Shown here one piece after another: positions 4,180 to 56,689 of a stretch of DNA of 64,000 nt. Made by a program: the position numbers and the translations under genes. This DNA is from an uncultured Candidatus Saccharibacteria bacterium (lineage in GTDB: Bacteria; Patescibacteriota; UBA1384; CAILIB01): positions 169,929-233,928 of the forward strand of contig CAZQKK010000001.1 of the NCBI GenBank assembly GCA_964593885.1, given 5' to 3'. The notes under the pieces are model-generated. The model worked only from the letters and a program-made list of their open reading frames with translations, was not told the origin of the DNA and made no database searches. Numbering within the stretch: position 1 is the first letter of the stretch; the number at the start of each line of letters is the position of its first letter.

Positions 4180-5598
<1,419 letters not shown>

Positions 5599-15478: not shown

Positions 15479-15553
15479 GGCAGGGTAGCTCAGGGGTAGA
15501 GCAGGAGACTCATAAGCTCTTGGTCGCGGGTTCAATTCCCGCCCCTGCCACCA
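15479..15553 (+). tRNA. tRNA with CAT anticodon, closest by eye to tRNA-Ile2 (lysidine, k2CAU) rather than elongator Met
   Basis: 75-nt cloverleaf: acceptor GGCAGGG/CCCTGCC, T-arm GCGGG-TTCAATT-CCCGC, anticodon loop CTCATAA, 3' CCA encoded. Anticodon arm and body are nearly identical to the E. coli ileX pattern (GAGCAGGNGACTCATAA...TTGGTCGC). Confidence 0.8.
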
Positions 15554-15590: not shown

Positions 15591-15634
15591 GCGCTAAAGA
15601 GGAAGGGAATTGAACGAGGAAAGGGTCGGAAAAC

Positions 15635-16105
15635 CTACGCTGCTGCAAGCTGCTGTCTCACCCGCCGGTGCTGCTCTCGCTCATGCAGCTTCTCTAGCTG
15701 GTAGCGCTCCAGGTGTTCACCACCAGGCATATCCTTGCTCACCTCAACACCATCGCCGCCTTTTTCAAGTGAGTGGTAGGAAATAATCATCGCTCCTACC
15801 CAGAATGGGTTCTGGAGAAGGGTGAGAAACTGAGAGCTCACACTCCCACCAAGCGTTTGTTGGAGTGCCTGGAGTTTCTCAGCACTCAAGACCCCCTGCT
15901 TCCCACTTGCTAGACCAGTGAGCACCACGTCCTCTTGGTTGCGCGCTTCTGTCTCGCTCTCATTCCAGGCATCAACCATCTTGAGAAAGTCCTTTCGCCA
16001 GGAGAGGTATTCTTCAAGAGGATCAGTCTCAGCTTCTTGGTAGTACGGCTCAGGCTCCGCGGCTGATTCGTATCGCTCTACAGAAAGCGTAAGGAACTCA
16101 CTCAC
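15635..16105 (-). CDS. hypothetical acidic protein
   Basis: ORF of 156 aa with no recognisable motifs. It is terminated by the bidirectional terminator. Confidence 0.4.
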   Translation of the reverse strand: MSEFLTLSVERYESAAEPEPYYQEAETDPLEEYLSWRKDFLKMVDAWNESETEARNQEDVVLTGLASGKQGVLSAEKLQALQQTLGGSVSSQFLTLLQNPFWVGAMIISYHSLEKGGDGVEVSKDMPGGEHLERYQLEKLHEREQHRRVRQQLAAA

Positions 16106-17812: not shown

Positions 17813-19126
17813 CTACTTGAGCGAAAGTACCTCAGCCCTCGCCATGAAATCAATGATGGCAGGGTCAACGATAATGTGACGCGGACTGATAGGAGACTTG
17901 AGGTAGAGCCCCTCTAGGGTGGTACACCTACTGAGTGCCACGTACGTTTGCCCGTGGGCGAAGGCACCCTGACTGAGGTCTACAAACACCGCCTCGTACG
18001 TTTTCCCCTGAGACTTGTGCACGGTAATTGCCCAGGCGAGCCGCATGGGAACTTGGGTAAATGAGCTTGCCACATCTGCCTCAATAGTTTCATCTTCACG
18101 GTTGTACGAGTACCTCACCGTCTCCCAGGTTTCCCTGGGGATGAGGTGTTTTTTGCCATCAATGGTAACACCAACCTCGGTGTCGTTGAGCGCTGTAACC
18201 ACCCCAATTGAACCGTTCACCCAACGCTTCTCACGGTCATTCTTGAGGAGCATCACCTGAGATCCAACCTTGAGCTGGAGCACCGCCTCGGTGGGAAAGG
18301 CACTCTCCTGGAGAGCACCGGTTACCTTTGCGGTGTAGGTTTTGTGTTCCCCATGGAGGAGATTGAGCTTCTCGTGGTTGGTGCGCGAGACCACCGCGTT
18401 AGTACCGGCCAAGGTGACAAAGCTATCCTCAGGGAGCGGGACCCCCACCCGGGTGTTGAGCGTTTCGATAATCTCTTCGGTGATATCACCCTTCCTAATG
18501 GCGTTGAGAATGCGCCTGAAAGCTTCATCTTTCTGACGGAACATCGTGTTGAGCTCAAAGATACGAAGGTCTAGCCTCCGACAAGCCGGGGCATTAAAGA
18601 AGTAGATCCCCTCGTAGGTTTCGTAGAGGTACTGCGAAAGCGACTGATCAGTGACAATGGGAGGAAGCTGGTAGAGGTCGCCAAAGAAAATCATCTGCAC
18701 CCCACCAAACGGGAGGTGGGAGCCCCGGGCTAGCTGGAGCTTCCAGCTAATTGCCTCCATGAGGTCGGCGCGCACCATGGAAACCTCATCGATCACCACC
18801 ACATCTACATTCTTGAGGAGAGTACGAGTCTTATCATCTACCGTGATGTCTGCTTGGCGAAGAAGCGTAGGTGCCAGCTTGAAGAATGAGTGAATGGTTT
18901 GGCCACCAACGTTCATCGCAGCAACACCGGTTGGAGCAACTACCACCGTACGCTTCTTGGTTGTAGCGATGAAGTACTGGAGGAGGAGCGATTTCCCCGT
19001 CCCTGCTTTTCCGGTGATGAACATGGAGTCATTACCCTCTTCAATGTACTCAAGTACCTTCCGCTGCTCATCACTGAGTGTTACGTTGGTGAGGTCTGTG
19101 CTGGATGATGCTCTTCGTTTTGCCAC
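17813..19126 (-). CDS. Pif1/RecD-like superfamily-1 DNA helicase
   Basis: Walker A GKAGTGKS, Walker B VVIDEVSM, and C-terminal motif TVHKSQG. A 437-aa compact Pif1-type architecture. Confidence 0.8.
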   Translation of the reverse strand: MAKRRASSSTDLTNVTLSDEQRKVLEYIEEGNDSMFITGKAGTGKSLLLQYFIATTKKRTVVVAPTGVAAMNVGGQTIHSFFKLAPTLLRQADITVDDKTRTLLKNVDVVVIDEVSMVRADLMEAISWKLQLARGSHLPFGGVQMIFFGDLYQLPPIVTDQSLSQYLYETYEGIYFFNAPACRRLDLRIFELNTMFRQKDEAFRRILNAIRKGDITEEIIETLNTRVGVPLPEDSFVTLAGTNAVVSRTNHEKLNLLHGEHKTYTAKVTGALQESAFPTEAVLQLKVGSQVMLLKNDREKRWVNGSIGVVTALNDTEVGVTIDGKKHLIPRETWETVRYSYNREDETIEADVASSFTQVPMRLAWAITVHKSQGKTYEAVFVDLSQGAFAHGQTYVALSRCTTLEGLYLKSPISPRHIIVDPAIIDFMARAEVLSLK

Positions 19127-19235
19127 GGTATTTTCGGTACTTGTACGGTACTACCCACGTTACACTGTTTTACCGTGGATACGTAGGGGTTGGGAGTTGA
19201 ACGTCAGGATGTCCTCAGCGTAAAGCTTCGGAACA

Positions 19236-19345
19236 TCCTTCCTCGGAAACCCACGGTTTCCGACGGCTGCAAGCAGCCTGCTTTCCTCCACGGGAAAACT
19301 TCCGTTTTCCCGGCCCCTTTCCTGTTCAAATCCTGCCCTCTTTGT
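19236..19345. other. conserved structured element, copy A (hairpins ggaaacc-cac-ggtttcc, ggctg-caag-cagcc, cgggaaaac-N4-gttttcccg, then gcccctttc)
   Basis: Shares core blocks with 29134-29210, and compensatory stem changes are visible. It lies between the helicase start and the tRNA-fMet terminator. Confidence 0.4.
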
Positions 19346-19350
19346 AGTCA

Positions 19351-19387
19351 AAACAAAAGGACCATCAGCCGATGGTCCTTTTGTTTT
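19351..19387. terminator. bidirectional intrinsic terminator
   Basis: aaaaggaccatc-agcc-gatggtcctttt with flanking A-tract and T-tract. Confidence 0.55.
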
Positions 19388-19463
19388 GGTAGCGGGGGTT
19401 GGATTTGAACCAACGACCTTCTGGTTATGAGCCAGACGAGCTTCCAGGCTGCTCTACCCCGCA
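19387..19463 (-). tRNA. tRNA-Met(CAT), initiator-like (fMet)
   Basis: 77 nt. Nearly colinear with E. coli tRNA-fMet (GCGGGGT.GAGCAGCCTGG.AGCTCGTC.GGCTCATAACC.GAAGGTCGT.GGTTCAAATCC...CCCCGC.ACCA). Position 1:72 is unpaired (U:U). Anticodon loop CTCATAA. Confidence 0.8.
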
Positions 19464-26879: not shown

Positions 26880-27533
26880 CTATACCTCTCTGTCTGAGGT
26901 GGCTGTTTCGTCAAAGAGAATAGCGATTGCAGCACCGCAGATTGCCCCCACAACTGGGAATGCAAGGTAGGTAAGGGAGTAGCTACCGAGGCCAAAAGCA
27001 ATTGCTGGGTTGAGGATACCACCGCCTGTGTGAGCACTGAGAATGAGCCCGAGCATGAGACCTCCACCAACCGTTGCTGGAACCATCGCAGCAGGAACAC
27101 GCTTGGTTACCGCTAGCATCACGGCAAAACTTAGAATCATCGTCCCAACAAACTCCCCCACAATGATTGATGTGTTGGTTGCAGTTACAGGGAGGGATGG
27201 AGCGCCAAGGAGGAGGTTTGCAAGTCTTACACCAACAAAACCACCGAGCAGCTGGCTCACGAGGTAGATACCTGCTTGCTGCAGCGAAATCTTACGGAAG
27301 AGTGCCTGTGAGATGGTAACGGCAGGATTTACGTGGGCGCCGCTCACCCAACCAAAGAACATGACGATGAGCATGAGCACCAAGCCAACCAAGAAAGGTA
27401 TAAAGGTGAACTCGTAGCCCTTAATACCAAAGTAGGCAGAGGTAATGAGGACAGCAACGGTACTTGAGAGAAATGCTGTGCCGAGGAATTCTGCGAGAAT
27501 CCAGCGAATGTAGGTAGCAGGAGCCTGTTTCAT
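26880..27533 (-). CDS. aquaporin / MIP-family channel
   Basis: Two NPA motifs (SGAHVNPAVT and GGILNPAIAFG), six TM segments, about 217 aa. Confidence 0.9.
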   Translation of the reverse strand: MKQAPATYIRWILAEFLGTAFLSSTVAVLITSAYFGIKGYEFTFIPFLVGLVLMLIVMFFGWVSGAHVNPAVTISQALFRKISLQQAGIYLVSQLLGGFVGVRLANLLLGAPSLPVTATNTSIIVGEFVGTMILSFAVMLAVTKRVPAAMVPATVGGGLMLGLILSAHTGGGILNPAIAFGLGSYSLTYLAFPVVGAICGAAIAILFDETATSDREV

Positions 27534-29020
27534 CGGTGAGGTTTCTTATGGCTTGTGTAGTGTTGTGAAGCGTAGATGCCACACGCGAGGGTAAGGATCG
27601 CAAACCCAACAAAGCCAACTGCCTGTTCAAGGGTACTGAGAGTTGGGAGATCAACGGCAAGGAATTGGAAGCTCGCCAGAATAATTGCTGCAGCACCGGC
27701 AACAACGCCAGCTGACTCATGGTGCATTCTACTGAGTGCGTAGAGCCAAATTCCCCAGACAGCGAAAAGAACAGTCTGGGTAAGACCAGTTGCTTCCTGG
27801 ACGAAGAGGATGAGGATGATTCCCCAAGCAGCAGTTGCAAGAGATCTTCGGATAATAGGTTGGAGGAGCGTCTCTCTTGGTTTAAGGTTCTGCTGCCACA
27901 AGCCGTACCACCAGTGCACGGTACCCAGTGTTGCCAGCATTACTGCTCCTAGCCAAACGCTGGTGTGCTGCCAAATTGGGCCGAAAACTGAGTAGATATT
28001 CCCCTGCACCATGAACAAAAAGTGGAGCGTAGCGAGTGACACTGCAGCAATACCCAGCATCCTAGCGGTGTAGCTTCCACCAAGGAATCCTGCCATGAGG
28101 CTCATGAGACCACCCGCAACAAGAGTGAGTACCACTGCTGTCTCATCGAGGTAGAGGTACACCCAGAGCATGGTACTTGCAGCGGCAACAGCGAGGAAGA
28201 ACTTCGCAAACGATTGCCTCGATACCTTTATCCAGGCACTTGCGGCATAGGCTAGGGATACTCCAGAGAGCGAAATAAAGGCAATCTGAAACGCCTGGTA
28301 GAGCGGATAGTTTGCGAGGAATCCAACGAGGGCGAGGTAAACCAGTGCTGTGGTAACTATGATGGTTATTCCCATCAAGTTGTTCTCGAGGGTTCGCCTC
28401 CAACCAGCAACCACCCAGAATGTCACCGCAAGGTAGGCAACGGCAAGGTAGGTACTGAGGATTCTCTCATCGGTAAATGCACCCGCTGGCTGGAGGAAGG
28501 AGATACTGGTGAGGAGGGTTGCGGCAGCCGTTGCAGTAGCGATCAGGAACCATCCCCTCCTGTTTTTCCCAGTTACGAGCATCACCACAATTGCTAGTCC
28601 GTTGATGAGGACAAGGAGCAGGCTTGGCGAGGCAACAAAGAGGAGGTTTAACCCAACGGTTAAGAACCCAACTCCAAAGAGGAGGAAGGCAGCAAGGATC
28701 ACTTGTACCTGGCTCTTATTGAGGAGGTGTACCTTTGGTTTGTGGTGCACGAGGTGAGCATGGCGCTTACCACTAGCATGGCGAAGCATGAGCTCACGAC
28801 TATCAGAAACGTCCCAGATGCCAGCCGCCCTCACAATGAGCCAGAGGGCAACGGCGGTGATGACACCGTACGCAACGTTAACTCCACCATATACCTGTAA
28901 ATCTGCGAGAAGTCCCAGGGAACCAACAGGCAAGAGGAACCAGCCTGCAATTCTTGAGGCGTTATCGCTCTTGATGAAGCGTATGAGTTGGTTGCTAGTT
29001 TTTGCGGAGAGGAGCCCCAT
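27530..29020 (-). CDS. large polytopic membrane protein (about 14 TM). The start is set at the internal ATG; the ORF-track start at 29080 lies inside the terminator repeat.
   Basis: Continuous series of hydrophobic helices. The first 20 ORF-track codons are encoded by a palindromic hairpin. Confidence 0.55.
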   Translation of the reverse strand: MGLLSAKTSNQLIRFIKSDNASRIAGWFLLPVGSLGLLADLQVYGGVNVAYGVITAVALWLIVRAAGIWDVSDSRELMLRHASGKRHAHLVHHKPKVHLLNKSQVQVILAAFLLFGVGFLTVGLNLLFVASPSLLLVLINGLAIVVMLVTGKNRRGWFLIATATAAATLLTSISFLQPAGAFTDERILSTYLAVAYLAVTFWVVAGWRRTLENNLMGITIIVTTALVYLALVGFLANYPLYQAFQIAFISLSGVSLAYAASAWIKVSRQSFAKFFLAVAAASTMLWVYLYLDETAVVLTLVAGGLMSLMAGFLGGSYTARMLGIAAVSLATLHFLFMVQGNIYSVFGPIWQHTSVWLGAVMLATLGTVHWWYGLWQQNLKPRETLLQPIIRRSLATAAWGIILILFVQEATGLTQTVLFAVWGIWLYALSRMHHESAGVVAGAAAIILASFQFLAVDLPTLSTLEQAVGFVGFAILTLACGIYASQHYTSHKKPHR

Positions 29021-29063
29021 ATGTAACCAGTGTACGGGTTTTTGGGGCAAAGAGACAAGACAA

Positions 29064-29118
29064 CTAAAAAAGACAGTCACTGACTGTCTCTTTTAGTTGG
29101 TGGGTCCACTGGGACTCT
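29064..29118. repeat. direct repeat copy 1: terminator hairpin plus 19-nt tRNA-Lys 3'-end fragment
   Basis: aaaaaagacagtcactgactgtctctttt..ttggtgggtccactgggactc is identical to 29234-29288 except for two compensatory positions in the extended stem. Confidence 0.65.
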
Positions 29119-29233
29119 CCGTCGCTTCGCTCCCAGAGAACCCACGGTTCTCTGCGCTCGCAAGCTCGCTACTCTCCTACACGGGAAAACACTGTTTTCC
29201 CGACCCCTTTCACTTTCGAGTCCCAGTCTAGTC
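29119..29233. other. conserved structured element, copy B
   Basis: agagaacc-cac-ggttctct, gcaagc block, cgggaaaac-N3-gttttcccg, acccctttc. Same order and spacing as copy A. Confidence 0.4.
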
Positions 29234-29269
29234 AAAGAAAAAAGACAGTCACTGACTGTCTCTTTTCTT
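29234..29269. terminator. bidirectional terminator (direct repeat copy 2) adjacent to tRNA-Lys
   Basis: caaagaaaaaagacagtca-c-tgactgtctcttttctttg, a near-perfect 19-bp stem. Confidence 0.55.
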
Positions 29270-29344
29270 TGGTGGGTCCACTGGGACTCGAACCCAGAAC
29301 CAATGGCTTAAAAGGCCACTGCTCTACCATTGAGCTATAGACCC
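29270..29344 (-). tRNA. tRNA-Lys(TTT)
   Basis: 75 nt: acceptor GGGTCTA/TGGACCC, anticodon loop CTTTTAA, T-arm CTGGG-TTCGAGT-CCCAG, CCA encoded. Confidence 0.85.
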
Positions 29345-29480
29345 GAAGCGAGCATGCAAGCGATGCTTGCATCAGCTTGTGATGCGAGCGAGGGTCACTG
29401 TCGCCGAAGGCGACTGAGACCTGATTTCATCCAAGCCACTCTACCAGATTAGCGACAAAAAAACACCCCCAGGAAGGGTG

Positions 29481-33851: not shown

Positions 33852-34979
33852 TTACAGGTGGTGAGATTGGGTAATGGTAAGGCGTACCGATGCGCCCACA
33901 ACCGGCACAACGAGGAACACGAAGCTTCCTATTGCAGCCAAGCCTGGGCCAATGTAAGGAATGAGACTAACAAGGGTTGGGATGAGCAGACCAATGGTGA
34001 GCGCCACGAAGAGGTCCTTGTTCTTCCGCTGGCTAATTTTAGTAAGCGAAGGAATTCGTGCCATCACCAGTTTACCCAGGAGTACTGCCCCAAACGTACC
34101 TGCAAGAAGTATGGCGAGCGCATAGCTTGCCATGAGCAGAAGCCCAACCCTCCAACCCAGGATGGTGGCAAAGAAGAGGATTGAGAGGAGAGGTAGTCCC
34201 AAGATGGTAGCAAGTCCCGTGGAGTAGGTTTTCCAACTCTCGGTGTAGGCTGCGTTTAGCACCAACCGAGTCTGCTTACCAAGGAAGAGGAGGATGAAAA
34301 AGCCAAAGAGGAGGAGGCTGAAGAAGTTGATAACTGCAAAGTTCCCGTAGGTTTCTTTCTTTGGGGTGTCTTTCGTCACAGAACCGGTAATTTTCACCAG
34401 CTCTTTACCGGTAAACTCATTTGGCGACGTGTAGTGGAGCGAACCTGCAATACTTCCACCCGTAAAGGTGAGGGTAGTAACGTTTGCTTCAACATTACCG
34501 GTTACCTTTGCCGAGCTTGCAATGGTACTGGCAGATACTGAAACATTTCCATCTACCATTCCCGCCAGTATCACCTCGCCAGCTGCTACAGAGAGGTTTC
34601 CCAAAATGTGTGCCGTATCCTTCATCGTAACCTTGCTGGCAACAATGAAGACATCTTGGCCAAATTCGCCATCAAGAACCACTTCCCCAGCGGCAACGTA
34701 TGAGTTGTAGGCAACTCCACCCAGGAGTTCAGCTTTTGAGGCTGCCACAAAGGCACTTCGCCCCACGGTCTTGGCTACGGTTACCGTTTCGCCCACCGCA
34801 AAAAGTTCACCCCTTACTGGCACTTTCATGGCAAGTGTTGTTGCCGAAAAGTAGGCATCTCCAGATACCTCTTCAGTTGGTGAGACAGTTACGCCTTGTT
34901 CAATGGTTGCGGCAAATGCTGAACCTGTCAGAAGAGTTGCAAGTACGAGACTGAGAAACACCTTGGTAAAAAACTTCAT
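33852..34979 (-). CDS. secreted beta-helical-repeat protein with C-terminal polytopic membrane region
   Basis: Signal peptide MKFFTKVFLSLVLATLLTGSAFAA. Repeated G-x-V/G-E-V motifs resemble bactofilin/DUF4097-like beta-helix repeats. Four to five C-terminal TM helices. The start is set at an internal ATG. Confidence 0.5.
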   Translation of the reverse strand: MKFFTKVFLSLVLATLLTGSAFAATIEQGVTVSPTEEVSGDAYFSATTLAMKVPVRGELFAVGETVTVAKTVGRSAFVAASKAELLGGVAYNSYVAAGEVVLDGEFGQDVFIVASKVTMKDTAHILGNLSVAAGEVILAGMVDGNVSVSASTIASSAKVTGNVEANVTTLTFTGGSIAGSLHYTSPNEFTGKELVKITGSVTKDTPKKETYGNFAVINFFSLLLFGFFILLFLGKQTRLVLNAAYTESWKTYSTGLATILGLPLLSILFFATILGWRVGLLLMASYALAILLAGTFGAVLLGKLVMARIPSLTKISQRKNKDLFVALTIGLLIPTLVSLIPYIGPGLAAIGSFVFLVVPVVGASVRLTITQSHHL

Positions 34980-55726: not shown

Positions 55727-56689
55727 ATGAAGGCAAACTCCCGAGCCGTTTTTCTCTCTATTGCCGCTGCTGCCTGCATCTACCTAGGTCTTGCGGTTTG
55801 GAGCAACTTCCACGATGTCAGTGAAGCATTTGAGCAGTTTACCTGGTGGTACTTCCCAATTATTCTCACGCTCACCTTCAGCAACTACCTCATCCGTTTT
55901 GGTACCTGGCAGTTCTACCTCTCGCGCCTCGGGATTACCTCCATCCCCCGCAGAGATTCCTTCCTCATCTACCTCTCGGGGTTTGCGATGTCGATTACCC
56001 CAGGGAAACTGGGCGAAGTTATCCGCGCGTTCCTCCTCAAGCGATCTCACGGCATTCCGGTAAGTAAGACCGGGGGACTGGTGTTAGTAGATAGACTCAC
56101 CGACCTCGCCGCCCTCGTAATCATCGCCACGGTAGGAGCGATTCAGTTCTCCTACGGCACGAAGCTCTTGGTTGGGGTAGCCATTGCCATCTCGGTGGTG
56201 CTCTTCGTTATTTCGCACCAAGCTACCGCTGAAAAAGTACTAGCTCTCTTGGGTAGGATACCCGCGCTCGGGAAGCGGAGCGAGAAGCTCAATGAGCTCT
56301 ACAAGAGCACGGGCGTACTCCTTCGCCCCAAGAACCTCATTCCCATCCTCATCTTCTCTACTGTTTCCTGGAGCTTTGAGGCCCTCGGTTTCTGGCTAGC
56401 CATGCAAGGCCTAGGACTTGAGACTAGCATCTGGAGTGCCGCTTTCATCTACGCTTTCTCAACCGTTATTGGCGCACTCTCAATTCTTCCCGGAGGCCTT
56501 GGGCTCACCGAGGGGAGCATGGCCGGGCTCCTCGTGCTCATCAATGTTCCTAAGGCTGCTGCCACCGCCACTACCTTCATCATCAGGGTGGCAACCCTCT
56601 GGTTTGGGGTAGCCATTGGCGCCATCTCGCTCGCCATCTTTGAGAAACGCTTCAAGCCCCAGGGTGAAGCTGGTATGATGGCCGAGTAA
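55727..56689 (+). CDS. LPG-synthase-TM / UPF0104-family membrane protein (putative lipid-linked sugar flippase)
   Basis: 8-TM pattern with ...GFAMSITPGKLGEVIRAFLLK... characteristic of the family. Confidence 0.6.
   Translation: MKANSRAVFLSIAAAACIYLGLAVWSNFHDVSEAFEQFTWWYFPIILTLTFSNYLIRFGTWQFYLSRLGITSIPRRDSFLIYLSGFAMSITPGKLGEVIRAFLLKRSHGIPVSKTGGLVLVDRLTDLAALVIIATVGAIQFSYGTKLLVGVAIAISVVLFVISHQATAEKVLALLGRIPALGKRSEKLNELYKSTGVLLRPKNLIPILIFSTVSWSFEALGFWLAMQGLGLETSIWSAAFIYAFSTVIGALSILPGGLGLTEGSMAGLLVLINVPKAAATATTFIIRVATLWFGVAIGAISLAIFEKRFKPQGEAGMMAE

Follow-up and report, generated by a model that had tools for sequence, protein, structure and literature searches.

A family of predicted structured RNA elements in Patescibacteria that carries copies of the adjacent tRNA 3' end in its closing stem

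Results

A duplicated tRNA 3' end frames a structured element

We analysed a 64-kb window (64,000 nt; positions 169,929 to 233,928 of contig CAZQKK010000001.1, assembly GCA_964593885.1) from an uncultured Candidatus Saccharibacteria bacterium, in which a tRNA-Lys(UUU) gene is followed by a second copy of its own 3' end. The DNA between the two repeats, termed element B, is one copy of a ~130-nt predicted structured-RNA element that recurs downstream of tRNA genes and at the 5' end of fusA, and whose arms copy the neighbouring target in both orientations. We favour, with a probability of roughly one half, the view that the repeat is a by-product of installing element B downstream of tRNA-Lys, and that the element is a non-autonomous mobile one. 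A preliminary description of the locus had considered either a miniature element or the scar of an excised or deleted island. The former holds, as a genuine small insertion is bracketed by the duplicated tRNA 3' end, whereas a scar does not account for intervening DNA that constitutes a conserved, covarying RNA structure.

The repeat itself had been described as perfect over 52 nt and as containing the 3' 19 nt of tRNA-Lys. It is present where described, but 29067-29118 and 29237-29288 match at 49 of 52 positions, and the shared tRNA 3' end comprises 20 nt, including the encoded CCA. Its layout consists of 29 identical nt covering the hairpin, three mismatched positions (AGT vs CTT) and 20 further identical nt, TGGTGGGTCCACTGGGACTC, which correspond to the 3'-terminal 20 nt of tRNA-Lys in reverse complement. 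The intervening DNA, given as about 115 bp, measures 118 nt (29119-29236), and both ARAGORN and the Rfam tRNA model support the assignment of the second copy as the real 3' end of tRNA-Lys (Table 1). The repeat can be extended to 65 nt at 89% identity, with the copies spaced 172 nt apart. Because it is the sole repeat of such size in the window, where other repeat families reach at most 52 nt and at most 93% identity, it lies far beyond chance expectation. Both copies contain a terminator-like hairpin, T1 directly 3' of the tRNA and T2 after element B, and both have retained the stem, with 19-nt arms that are 95% complementary and, for T1, a subsequent T run on the tRNA strand. The mismatches between the copies flank the hairpin symmetrically and are compensatory (AAG...CTT vs ACT...AGT on the RNA strand). 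Since the stem bases of T1 and T2 differ solely by paired substitutions (CAAAG...CTTTG vs CAACT...AGTTG), the two appear to be under selection to stay hairpins.

Element B has a 5' arm, ACTGGGACTCGAA (RNA strand), that is the exact reverse complement of the T-loop and 3' T-stem of tRNA-Lys (TTCGAGTCCCAGT), and a 3' arm that is a sense copy of the tRNA end. In the closing stem P1, formed by 29108-29117 and 29218-29227, both strands are thus tRNA-derived. The core between the arms comprises the junction strand GAAAGGGGUC, the hairpins P2 (29182-29202) and P4 (29134-29154), a variable hairpin region and a GCGAAGC mini-hairpin (29124-29130); its sequence reads GAAAGGGGUCGGGAAAAC-loop-GUUUUCCCGUG...AACCGUGGGUU...GCGAAGCGAC, followed by the sense copy GAGUCCCAGUGGACCCACCA. 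Covariance model R2 detected the core with 61.3 bits (E = 1.5e-18, 29128-29221), and its fold z-score is -4.0. With this model, exactly two full copies, A and B, were found in the window. Copy A sits downstream of tRNA-Met 19387-19463 (minus strand), has a 5' arm, GGATTTGAAC (also given as GGAUUUGAAC), that is antisense to the T-loop of this tRNA-Met, and ends in a 3' arm that is a degenerate copy of the same tRNA's 3' end. A third copy after tRNA-Met 15479-15553 was rejected, as the model score of 5.4 bits would indicate a remnant at best, and a match at 34092-34174 (12.5 bits) lies within coding sequence and represents noise. At 15603-15635 on the plus strand, 3' of tRNA-Met 15479-15553, the segment GGGAATTGAACGAGGAAAGGGTCGGAAAACC resembles a 5' arm with the start of a core, and GGGAATTGAAC is antisense to the T-loop of this tRNA; the segment is probably the decayed remnant of a third copy.

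The element belongs to a large family found mostly in Patescibacteria

We scanned one genome per species for an 18-nt core motif and obtained at least 119 loci, the family counts given here being those among the matches listed. At least 102 motif instances carry the P2 hairpin and qualify as true members. They reside mostly in metagenome-assembled genomes (MAGs) named as Patescibacteria, or candidate phyla radiation (CPR), and their hosts include Saccharibacteria, Parcu-/Paceibacteria, Kaiser-, Morani-, Jorgensen-, Colwell-, Taylor- and Berkelbacteria as well as WS2. Further divergent copies were found by the covariance model within single 8-kb loci. The search for additional copies proposed in the preliminary description therefore yielded copy A and at least 102 members in other genomes, and 44 of 56 tRNA-linked loci repeat the end of their own tRNA. 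Typical members also occur in MAGs labelled Gammaproteobacteria, Bdellovibrionales or Bathyarchaeia (L010, L037, L064, L072, L077, L090, L100 and L109), one of which has an 886-kb chromosome; these labels probably reflect misclassified or mis-binned CPR contigs.

At gathering and permissive thresholds, no Rfam family matched the core and only tRNA passed, the best match over the core being sroE with 16 bits against a gathering score of 51. Rfam likewise detected no known RNA beside the members that lack a tRNA, and the literature searched yielded nothing relevant, either on the core sequence or on RNAs and elements linked to tRNAs in CPR bacteria. The family is apparently undescribed. Signal recognition particle (SRP) RNA, RNase P RNA, transfer-messenger RNA (tmRNA), retron non-coding RNA, group I and II introns and known riboswitches or ribozymes were dropped as identities because their defining motifs are absent, because the element is multi-copy, or because ARAGORN or Rfam was negative. 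A phage or viral vector was also discarded, the family being essentially absent from viral contigs.

Two further observations concern the breadth of the family. A subgroup without adjacent tRNA or fusA (L011, L015, L018, L034, L042, L047, L058 and L102) has an extra small hairpin between 5' arm and core and lies among GGAGG/CCTCC-rich repeats. In L101, ~90-260 nt 3' of tRNA-Arg(gcg), another element has the same layout with an unrelated core: an arm antisense to the T-arm (CAGGAATCGGAC), the core, and a sense copy (CCGATTCCCTGCC). The L101 element suggests a wider superfamily of target-copying elements with differing cores.

Both arms copy the neighbouring target

A tRNA gene ends at most 120 nt upstream in 56 of the 102 members. 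These tRNAs cover ~18 isotypes and are always encoded on the same strand as the element, never on the opposite one. We scored the arms of each element against its own tRNA and, as a control, against tRNAs from other loci. With a mean score of 13.4 vs 6.0 in the control, the 3' arm proved to be a copy of the 15-22 nt with which the element's own tRNA ends, and it exceeded the 95th percentile of the control in 44 of the 56 loci. The 5' arm reproduces this tRNA stretch as its reverse complement (12.2 vs 6.6; 39 of 56 loci above control). As the inner 5' arm tracks the T-loop variants TCGAAC, TTGAAC and TTCGGAC, it must be templated from the real tRNA.

The two edges of the direct copy behave differently. 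Its left edge is fixed in the T-loop, most elements reading GCGAC-GUGAGA|UCC where the tRNA has GGUUCGA|UCC, whereas the right edge varies from 0 to ~65 nt beyond the tRNA. The discriminator or the CCA is a frequent end point, while in L006, L035, L038, L039, L041 and window copy B the edge lies 11 to ~65 nt into the gene flank. Flank duplications of 27-85 nt were observed for L006, L035, L038, L041, L083, L104, L077, L017 and copy B; in the latter, the direct copy runs through the whole terminator, which gives rise to the 52-65-nt repeat of the window. Among 28 tRNA genes without encoded CCA, a CCA is present in only four of the elements, while the gene's own trailer is repeated in 11. The copied material is genomic DNA, not mature tRNA. 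We accordingly rejected, as a general rule, an origin of the 3' arm from mature CCA-tailed tRNA via reverse transcription (4 of 28; L114 is a possible exception). The idea that terminators following the 3' arm are element-borne was dropped as well, since it does not hold generally.

The second target is the 5' end of fusA, encoding elongation factor G (EF-G), in the region of the G1 motif, where the same layout is found without a tRNA. In this subgroup, the arms and the flank repeat are antisense to the fusA 5' end; the copy starts in the G1-motif codons (I-I-A-H-I/V-D-A/H-G-K), and the duplication extends over up to 66 of 66 nt, reaching the start codon. EF-G is the only recurrent protein family near the elements (14 of the 96 loci surveyed). 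At fusA, the element occupies the strand opposite to the gene, and the target gene is left intact. Both targeted motifs are ultra-conserved.

The core is predicted to fold as RNA on the tRNA strand

The near-invariant core consists of the junction GAAAGGGGUC and two hairpins, CGGGAAAAC/GUUUUCCCG and the covarying AAACC/GGUUU, to which further hairpins may be added, and is closed by a stem whose strands are the inverted and the direct copy of the neighbouring tRNA 3' end, from T-loop through acceptor strand. Individual members share a multi-branch fold with z-scores of -2.9 to -7.0. To assess covariation, we used a covariance-model alignment of 131 distinct sequences and 500 column shuffles, the model being built on the 5' two-thirds of the element with a specified structure. 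In this alignment, 92.2% of cells were paired, compared to 84.9% in the shuffles and at most 71% with slid partners, and the covariation score of 0.155 (vs 0.063) was reached in none of the 500 shuffles. P4 showed double changes at all eight of its pairs, and the divergent orthologues L122 and L128 carry compensatory variants of P2 and P4. A combination of MAFFT and RNAalifold applied to whole elements recovered P2 alone, because length-variable hairpins shift the arms out of register. Compensatory helices thus occur together with strand-specific RNA motifs, as in structured non-coding RNAs.

According to these models, the element would be a structured RNA on the tRNA strand. The strand was assigned because of the GNRA loop counts: tetraloops of P2 are GNRA in 41 of 86 cases on the tRNA strand, compared to one of 86 on the other. 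Terminator-like hairpins are equally common on both strands. The genomic context of three loci agrees with an RNA on the tRNA strand, L041 and L114 having no tRNA terminator before the element and L109 showing the order promoter, core, tRNA operon.

Filled and empty sites coexist

Scanning metagenome contigs for the exact 3' end of the window's tRNA-Lys uncovered both filled and empty sites, so the comparison of orthologous loci suggested in the preliminary description revealed a polymorphism. L122 and L128 are syntenic, have an identical tRNA-Lys and contain the element, with neighbouring genes 57-60% identical to those of the window. Counting the window itself, L057 is a fourth syntenic filled site, in which the tRNA acceptor stem differs and the element arm matches the local tRNA. 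L129 is syntenic and lacks the element, tRNA-Lys being followed by a terminator only, and L131, non-syntenic with a near-identical tRNA, is also empty and probably represents an empty orthologous site. Because L122 is devoid of the flank duplication, the duplicated terminator of the window must be lineage-specific. Many other tRNAs, among them tRNA-Ser of the window, are likewise not followed by an element.

In L041, an intact terminator continues the distal flank copy, whereas the proximal copy breaks off in the loop of this hairpin; the distal copy therefore represents the original DNA, the tRNA having been deprived of its terminator. Such an arrangement would be the expected product of insertion with target duplication. 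L039 is a true tandem array, in L006 the core is flanked on either side by an 83-nt repeat, and L093 contains two units 144 nt apart. Multiple copies per genome were observed, and copies within a genome are more alike than copies from different genomes (0.765 vs 0.679, p = 3e-5). In L114, the copies at tRNA-Arg and tRNA-Gly are 93.5% identical: homology spans the core and resumes past a ~12-nt tRNA-specific segment with CCA, extending into a shared terminator, and the matched outer 5' arm is found only in the older-looking Arg copy.

Across the 96 loci surveyed, no integrase, reverse transcriptase, transposase or polymerase adjoins any copy or recurs nearby. The 30 largest open reading frames (ORFs) of the window encode no integrase, recombinase, reverse transcriptase or transposase, neither these ORFs nor the 96 loci contain a TnpB, IscB or Cas gene near the copies, and viral contigs yielded no mobilising enzyme.

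Annotation of the window

The coordinates of the features are given in Table 1. The 516-aa ORF called mechanically downstream of element B starts at a GTG inside T2, whereas the gene called on contig L001 encodes 496 aa; the first 20 'codons' therefore are the hairpin, in agreement with the preliminary description. L001 (Logan contig SRR12404947_41207) is an independent assembly of the same sequence, 5448 nt long, in which the gene ends at 5327. The contig stops ~120 nt past the start of the downstream gene, and coordinate mapping places its end inside element B.

On the other side of tRNA-Lys, two strong hairpins, which read GATGCAAGCATCGCTTGCATGC and GTCGCCTTCGGCGAC on the tRNA strand, lie in its ~120-nt leader region (29345-29470), between the terminator of the upstream gene and tRNA-Lys. 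Directly downstream of copy A starts a gene for a PIF1-like/RecD-like helicase (17813-19126, minus strand; Pfam PIF1, 1e-32). An LPG_synthase_TM domain, the membrane domain of lysyl-phosphatidylglycerol-synthase type, is encoded at 55727-56689 (plus strand); enzymes of this type use aminoacyl-tRNA.

Table 1. Features at the tRNA-Lys locus and second copy of the element in the 64-kb window
Feature	Coordinates	Strand	Basis or remark
tRNA-Lys(UUU), encoded CCA	29270-29344	-	ARAGORN; Rfam tRNA 76.9 bits
tRNA part of repeat copy 2 (target segment X1)	29270-29289		last 20 nt of tRNA-Lys
Direct repeat, tRNA-proximal copy, 65 nt	29225-29289	.	repeat search, 89% over 65 nt; local alignment 55/60
Direct repeat, distal copy, extended	29053-29117	.	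repeat search; local alignment
Terminator-like hairpin T1, immediately 3' of tRNA, in repeat copy 2	29233-29271	-	inverted-repeat search; sequence
Terminator-like hairpin T2 after element B, duplicate of T1 with compensatory changes	29061-29099	-	inverted-repeat search
Element B, 5' arm	29215-29227	-	sequence; family-wide arm test
Element B, core	29118-29214	-	covariance model R2; fold z; covariation
Element B, 3' arm (X2), sense copy of last 20 nt of tRNA-Lys including CCA	29098-29117	-	
Copy A of the element	19182-19333	-	R2 73.5 bits, E = 1.4e-22, at 19238-19331
Downstream membrane-protein gene	27530-29022	-	start ATG 29022, not GTG 29080 inside T2

Discussion

How could a small RNA element come to carry its landing site in both orientations? 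If element B was installed as a non-autonomous mobile element, it would ride on tRNA transcription and be co-transcribed with the tRNA. Several loci have no tRNA terminator before the element. A template-switching polymerase supplied in trans, of copy-choice or target-primed type, would then copy the element to new sites. Copying anchored at the conserved palindromic T-loop motif GTTCGA would give the duplication its fixed left edge, and a variable exit point would yield the variable right edge. The inverted arm might arise from strand switching at the T-loop palindrome, or from later hairpin-templated correction against the tRNA. The conserved RNA fold could serve as recognition feature for mobilising or processing enzymes, the tRNA-like stem may allow RNase P and RNase Z to trim the RNA, and tandem arrays could result from re-insertion or from slippage between two direct copies.

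Several points weigh against such a mobile element. The mobilising activity is hypothetical, because neither the surroundings of the copies nor viral contigs nor the 30 largest window ORFs yielded a polymerase, reverse transcriptase, integrase or transposase. A simple target duplication would not explain the inverted 5' arm, which matches the true T-loop of the tRNA and not the GTGAGA 3' junction carried by the element itself. The segment of L114 that matches the tRNA lies internally, as a cassette between element-borne sequences, and its CCA is absent from the genes; a different route, either short-patch conversion or a template switch onto tRNA, would fit this locus. The strands cannot be told apart by wobble-pair asymmetry, and the apparent excess of A·C pairs is a register artefact caused by a bulged A. 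Finally, relatives at only ~60% protein identity share the element at the tRNA-Lys locus. An old RNA, passed on vertically and possibly functional, would explain this just as well, with conversion or selection keeping its arms matched.

Such a non-mobile, tRNA-linked RNA gene would act as a processing, stability or regulatory module of tRNA operons, its stem being held identical to the tRNA by short-patch conversion or selection and its flank repeats reflecting secondary slippage. We regard this as rather improbable. In its favour are the strong core conservation with covariation across several Patescibacteria lineages and the persistence at tRNA-Lys in relatives at ~60% protein identity. The arms of L057 track the local tRNA, the element is always co-oriented with its tRNA and lies inside or leads tRNA operons in L068, L037, L097 and L109, the terminator duplication of the window is lineage-specific (it is missing from L122), and several duplications end at or inside the 5' arm (L006, L038, copy B), as would be seen for a truncated second unit. 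A vertically inherited RNA is, however, difficult to reconcile with the presence/absence differences between orthologous sites and with the many tRNAs, tRNA-Ser of the window among them, that have no element; nor does it account for 93.5%-identical copies at different tRNAs of one genome (L114) or for the insertion of the L041 element inside the loop of a pre-existing terminator. The opposite orientation at fusA, moreover, leaves no consistent logic for a sense or antisense regulator. Less probable still, in our view, is a miniature element of integrase type resembling cis-mobilizable elements (CIMEs), in which the repeats would be attL and attR, as the preliminary description had proposed, and a tyrosine recombinase acting in trans would cross over in the T-loop or the fusA G1-motif region, with the element bringing a replacement gene end. 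Direct repeats of the tRNA 3' end do flank an insert that spares the target gene, orthologous sites are found both filled and empty, tandem arrays are also known for integrative elements, and both targets, the tRNA 3' end and the G1-motif region in the 5' part of a translational GTPase gene, resemble classic integrase attachment (att) sites, as exemplified by SXT in prfC. The attL/attR assignment is nevertheless unproven and fits poorly. No integrase was found in or near any copy (96 loci; 30 largest ORFs of the window), and an element-borne att site would stay with one tRNA, whereas closely related cores occur at many isotypes with matched arms. The family is found at fusA as well. The right repeat boundary, 0 to ~65 nt beyond the tRNA, is not fixed, att recombination does not produce the inverted target copy carried by each element, and GNRA loops and helix covariation point to RNA instead of protein-binding arm sites in duplex DNA.

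We consider it very unlikely that the element is a guide-RNA-like module, with the core as scaffold and the 3' segment identical to a target beside a short motif (GGTTC, GCGTC), used for homing or regulation by a trans-encoded TnpB-, IscB- or Cas12k-like protein. The target-identical segment indeed begins beside a fixed motif, the site that it matches lies 20-100 nt upstream of the element, which has one orientation and leaves the target intact, and the matching segment of L114 behaves as an exchangeable cassette within conserved sequence. The putative guide is, however, mostly sequestered in stem P1 by the 5' arm, the match often extends 27-85 nt into the flank, far beyond any guide, and neither a TnpB, IscB or Cas gene nearby nor an Rfam match to omega RNA families was found in the loci and ORFs surveyed. 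Had the tRNA 3' end and terminator been duplicated locally in tandem, by chance or as a one-off event devoid of any element, the A-B-A layout with its 172-nt spacing would also result, but the B segment belongs to a structured family of at least 102 members, and the layout recurs at 56 tRNA loci and at fusA. Such an ancient single event, which the preliminary description had named as the scenario that would overturn its interpretation, is excluded by the other copies and the polymorphism, and its probability is negligible.

A large part of bacterial diversity belongs to the Patescibacteria, whose genomes are tiny and believed to be poor in repetitive and selfish DNA. The family would constitute a new and abundant class of non-coding RNA in these bacteria, and would be a recurrent cause of assembly breaks, as at the end of L001, and of mis-called gene starts, here 20 codons early. 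Its repeats probably fragment short-read assemblies of such genomes. The installation of a trans-mobilised element would also raise the possibility of target-templated retargeting, that is, of a mobile unit copying its landing site into its own structure. More tentatively, and with doubts prevailing, the family might form a new class of mobile element: a small RNA hitch-hiking on tRNA transcription, mobilised in trans by a reverse transcriptase or template-switching polymerase, that rebuilds its closing stem at every landing site by copying the target both ways. One core could then colonise any tRNA gene, and fusA, across Patescibacteria, as a self-retargeting bacterial counterpart of short interspersed nuclear elements (SINEs). 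Under the more conservative interpretation as tRNA-linked RNA, a minihelix matched to its tRNA would imply an unrecognised tie to tRNA processing. The element family is of interest whichever mechanism holds true.

Comparison with known systems

Parts of this organisation are found in several known systems. tRNA-targeting integrative elements and their derivatives without integrase (genomic islands, CIMEs), as well as SXT/R391 elements in the 5' end of prfC, likewise leave an intact target and a direct repeat of the tRNA 3' end, which here flanks the insert on both sides (20 nt in the window; 44 of 56 loci), and they share the preference for tRNA 3' ends and the 5' G1-motif region of GTPase genes. 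In contrast to these elements, the present family has no integrase, its ~130-nt insert is a conserved RNA structure, one core is found at many isotypes with matched arms, and an extra inverted target copy is present. The repeat length also varies by locus, with a right edge ranging from the discriminator to ~65 nt beyond. Miniature inverted-repeat transposable elements (MITEs) and repetitive extragenic palindrome doublets forming hairpins (REPINs) are similarly short, non-coding, multi-copy, hairpin-forming and located in intergenic regions after genes. Whereas MITEs are defined by element-borne terminal inverted repeats and a short duplication of fixed length, the 'terminal inverted repeat' of the present element is copied from each target and hence locus-specific, its duplications are long and variable (17-85 nt), and it is highly selective in its targets.

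Integron attC sites and other folded single-strand recombination sites also have a closing stem that is conserved in structure rather than sequence; the inner stem of the element ends in ...AAC/GTT..., as in attC, and its outer stem is partly target-derived. Unlike attC, it has GNRA loops and purine-rich junctions that indicate RNA, is accompanied by neither an IntI gene nor a cassette ORF, and uses other targets. The omega RNAs of TnpB and IscB and the homing CRISPR RNA (crRNA) of type V-K CRISPR-associated transposons (CASTs) likewise combine a scaffold with a segment identical to the adjacent target. The homing crRNA of type V-K CASTs targets tRNA genes, and insertion downstream of them in one orientation is a further likeness. 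Here, by contrast, no nuclease or transposase is found, the matching segment is base-paired and can extend tens of nt into the flank, and Rfam gives no match. An acceptor/T-stem-like closing helix is also a feature of tmRNA, of YrlA (a bacterial Y RNA) and of viral tRNA-like structures; many members have a 3' discriminator-CCA tail, and the 5' sequence GGAUUCGAAC-GGGA resembles the 5' tRNA-like region of tmRNA. Different from such minihelix RNAs, the element is multi-copy, copies the adjacent tRNA into its stem, has no tag reading frame and no T-loop or D-loop analogue, and is not called by ARAGORN.

To our knowledge, SINE-like elements are not known in bacteria, and confirmation of an RNA-templated mechanism would make the present family the first such system. 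It differs from SINEs and from retroplasmids in that no reverse transcriptase is present in the window or the loci, and in that mostly genomic DNA, including the flank, is copied. Similar to target-primed retrotransposition of the SINE and LINE (long interspersed nuclear element) type, however, it is a small non-autonomous RNA-coding unit with a tRNA-like end, and it shows, in L041 among other loci, the variable-length target duplication at a preferred motif that marks retroposons. The reverse transcriptase of the Neurospora Mauriceville retroplasmid captures tRNA, variants of the plasmid arising by template switching, and the embedded tRNA segment of L114, with its non-encoded CCA, resembles these variants.

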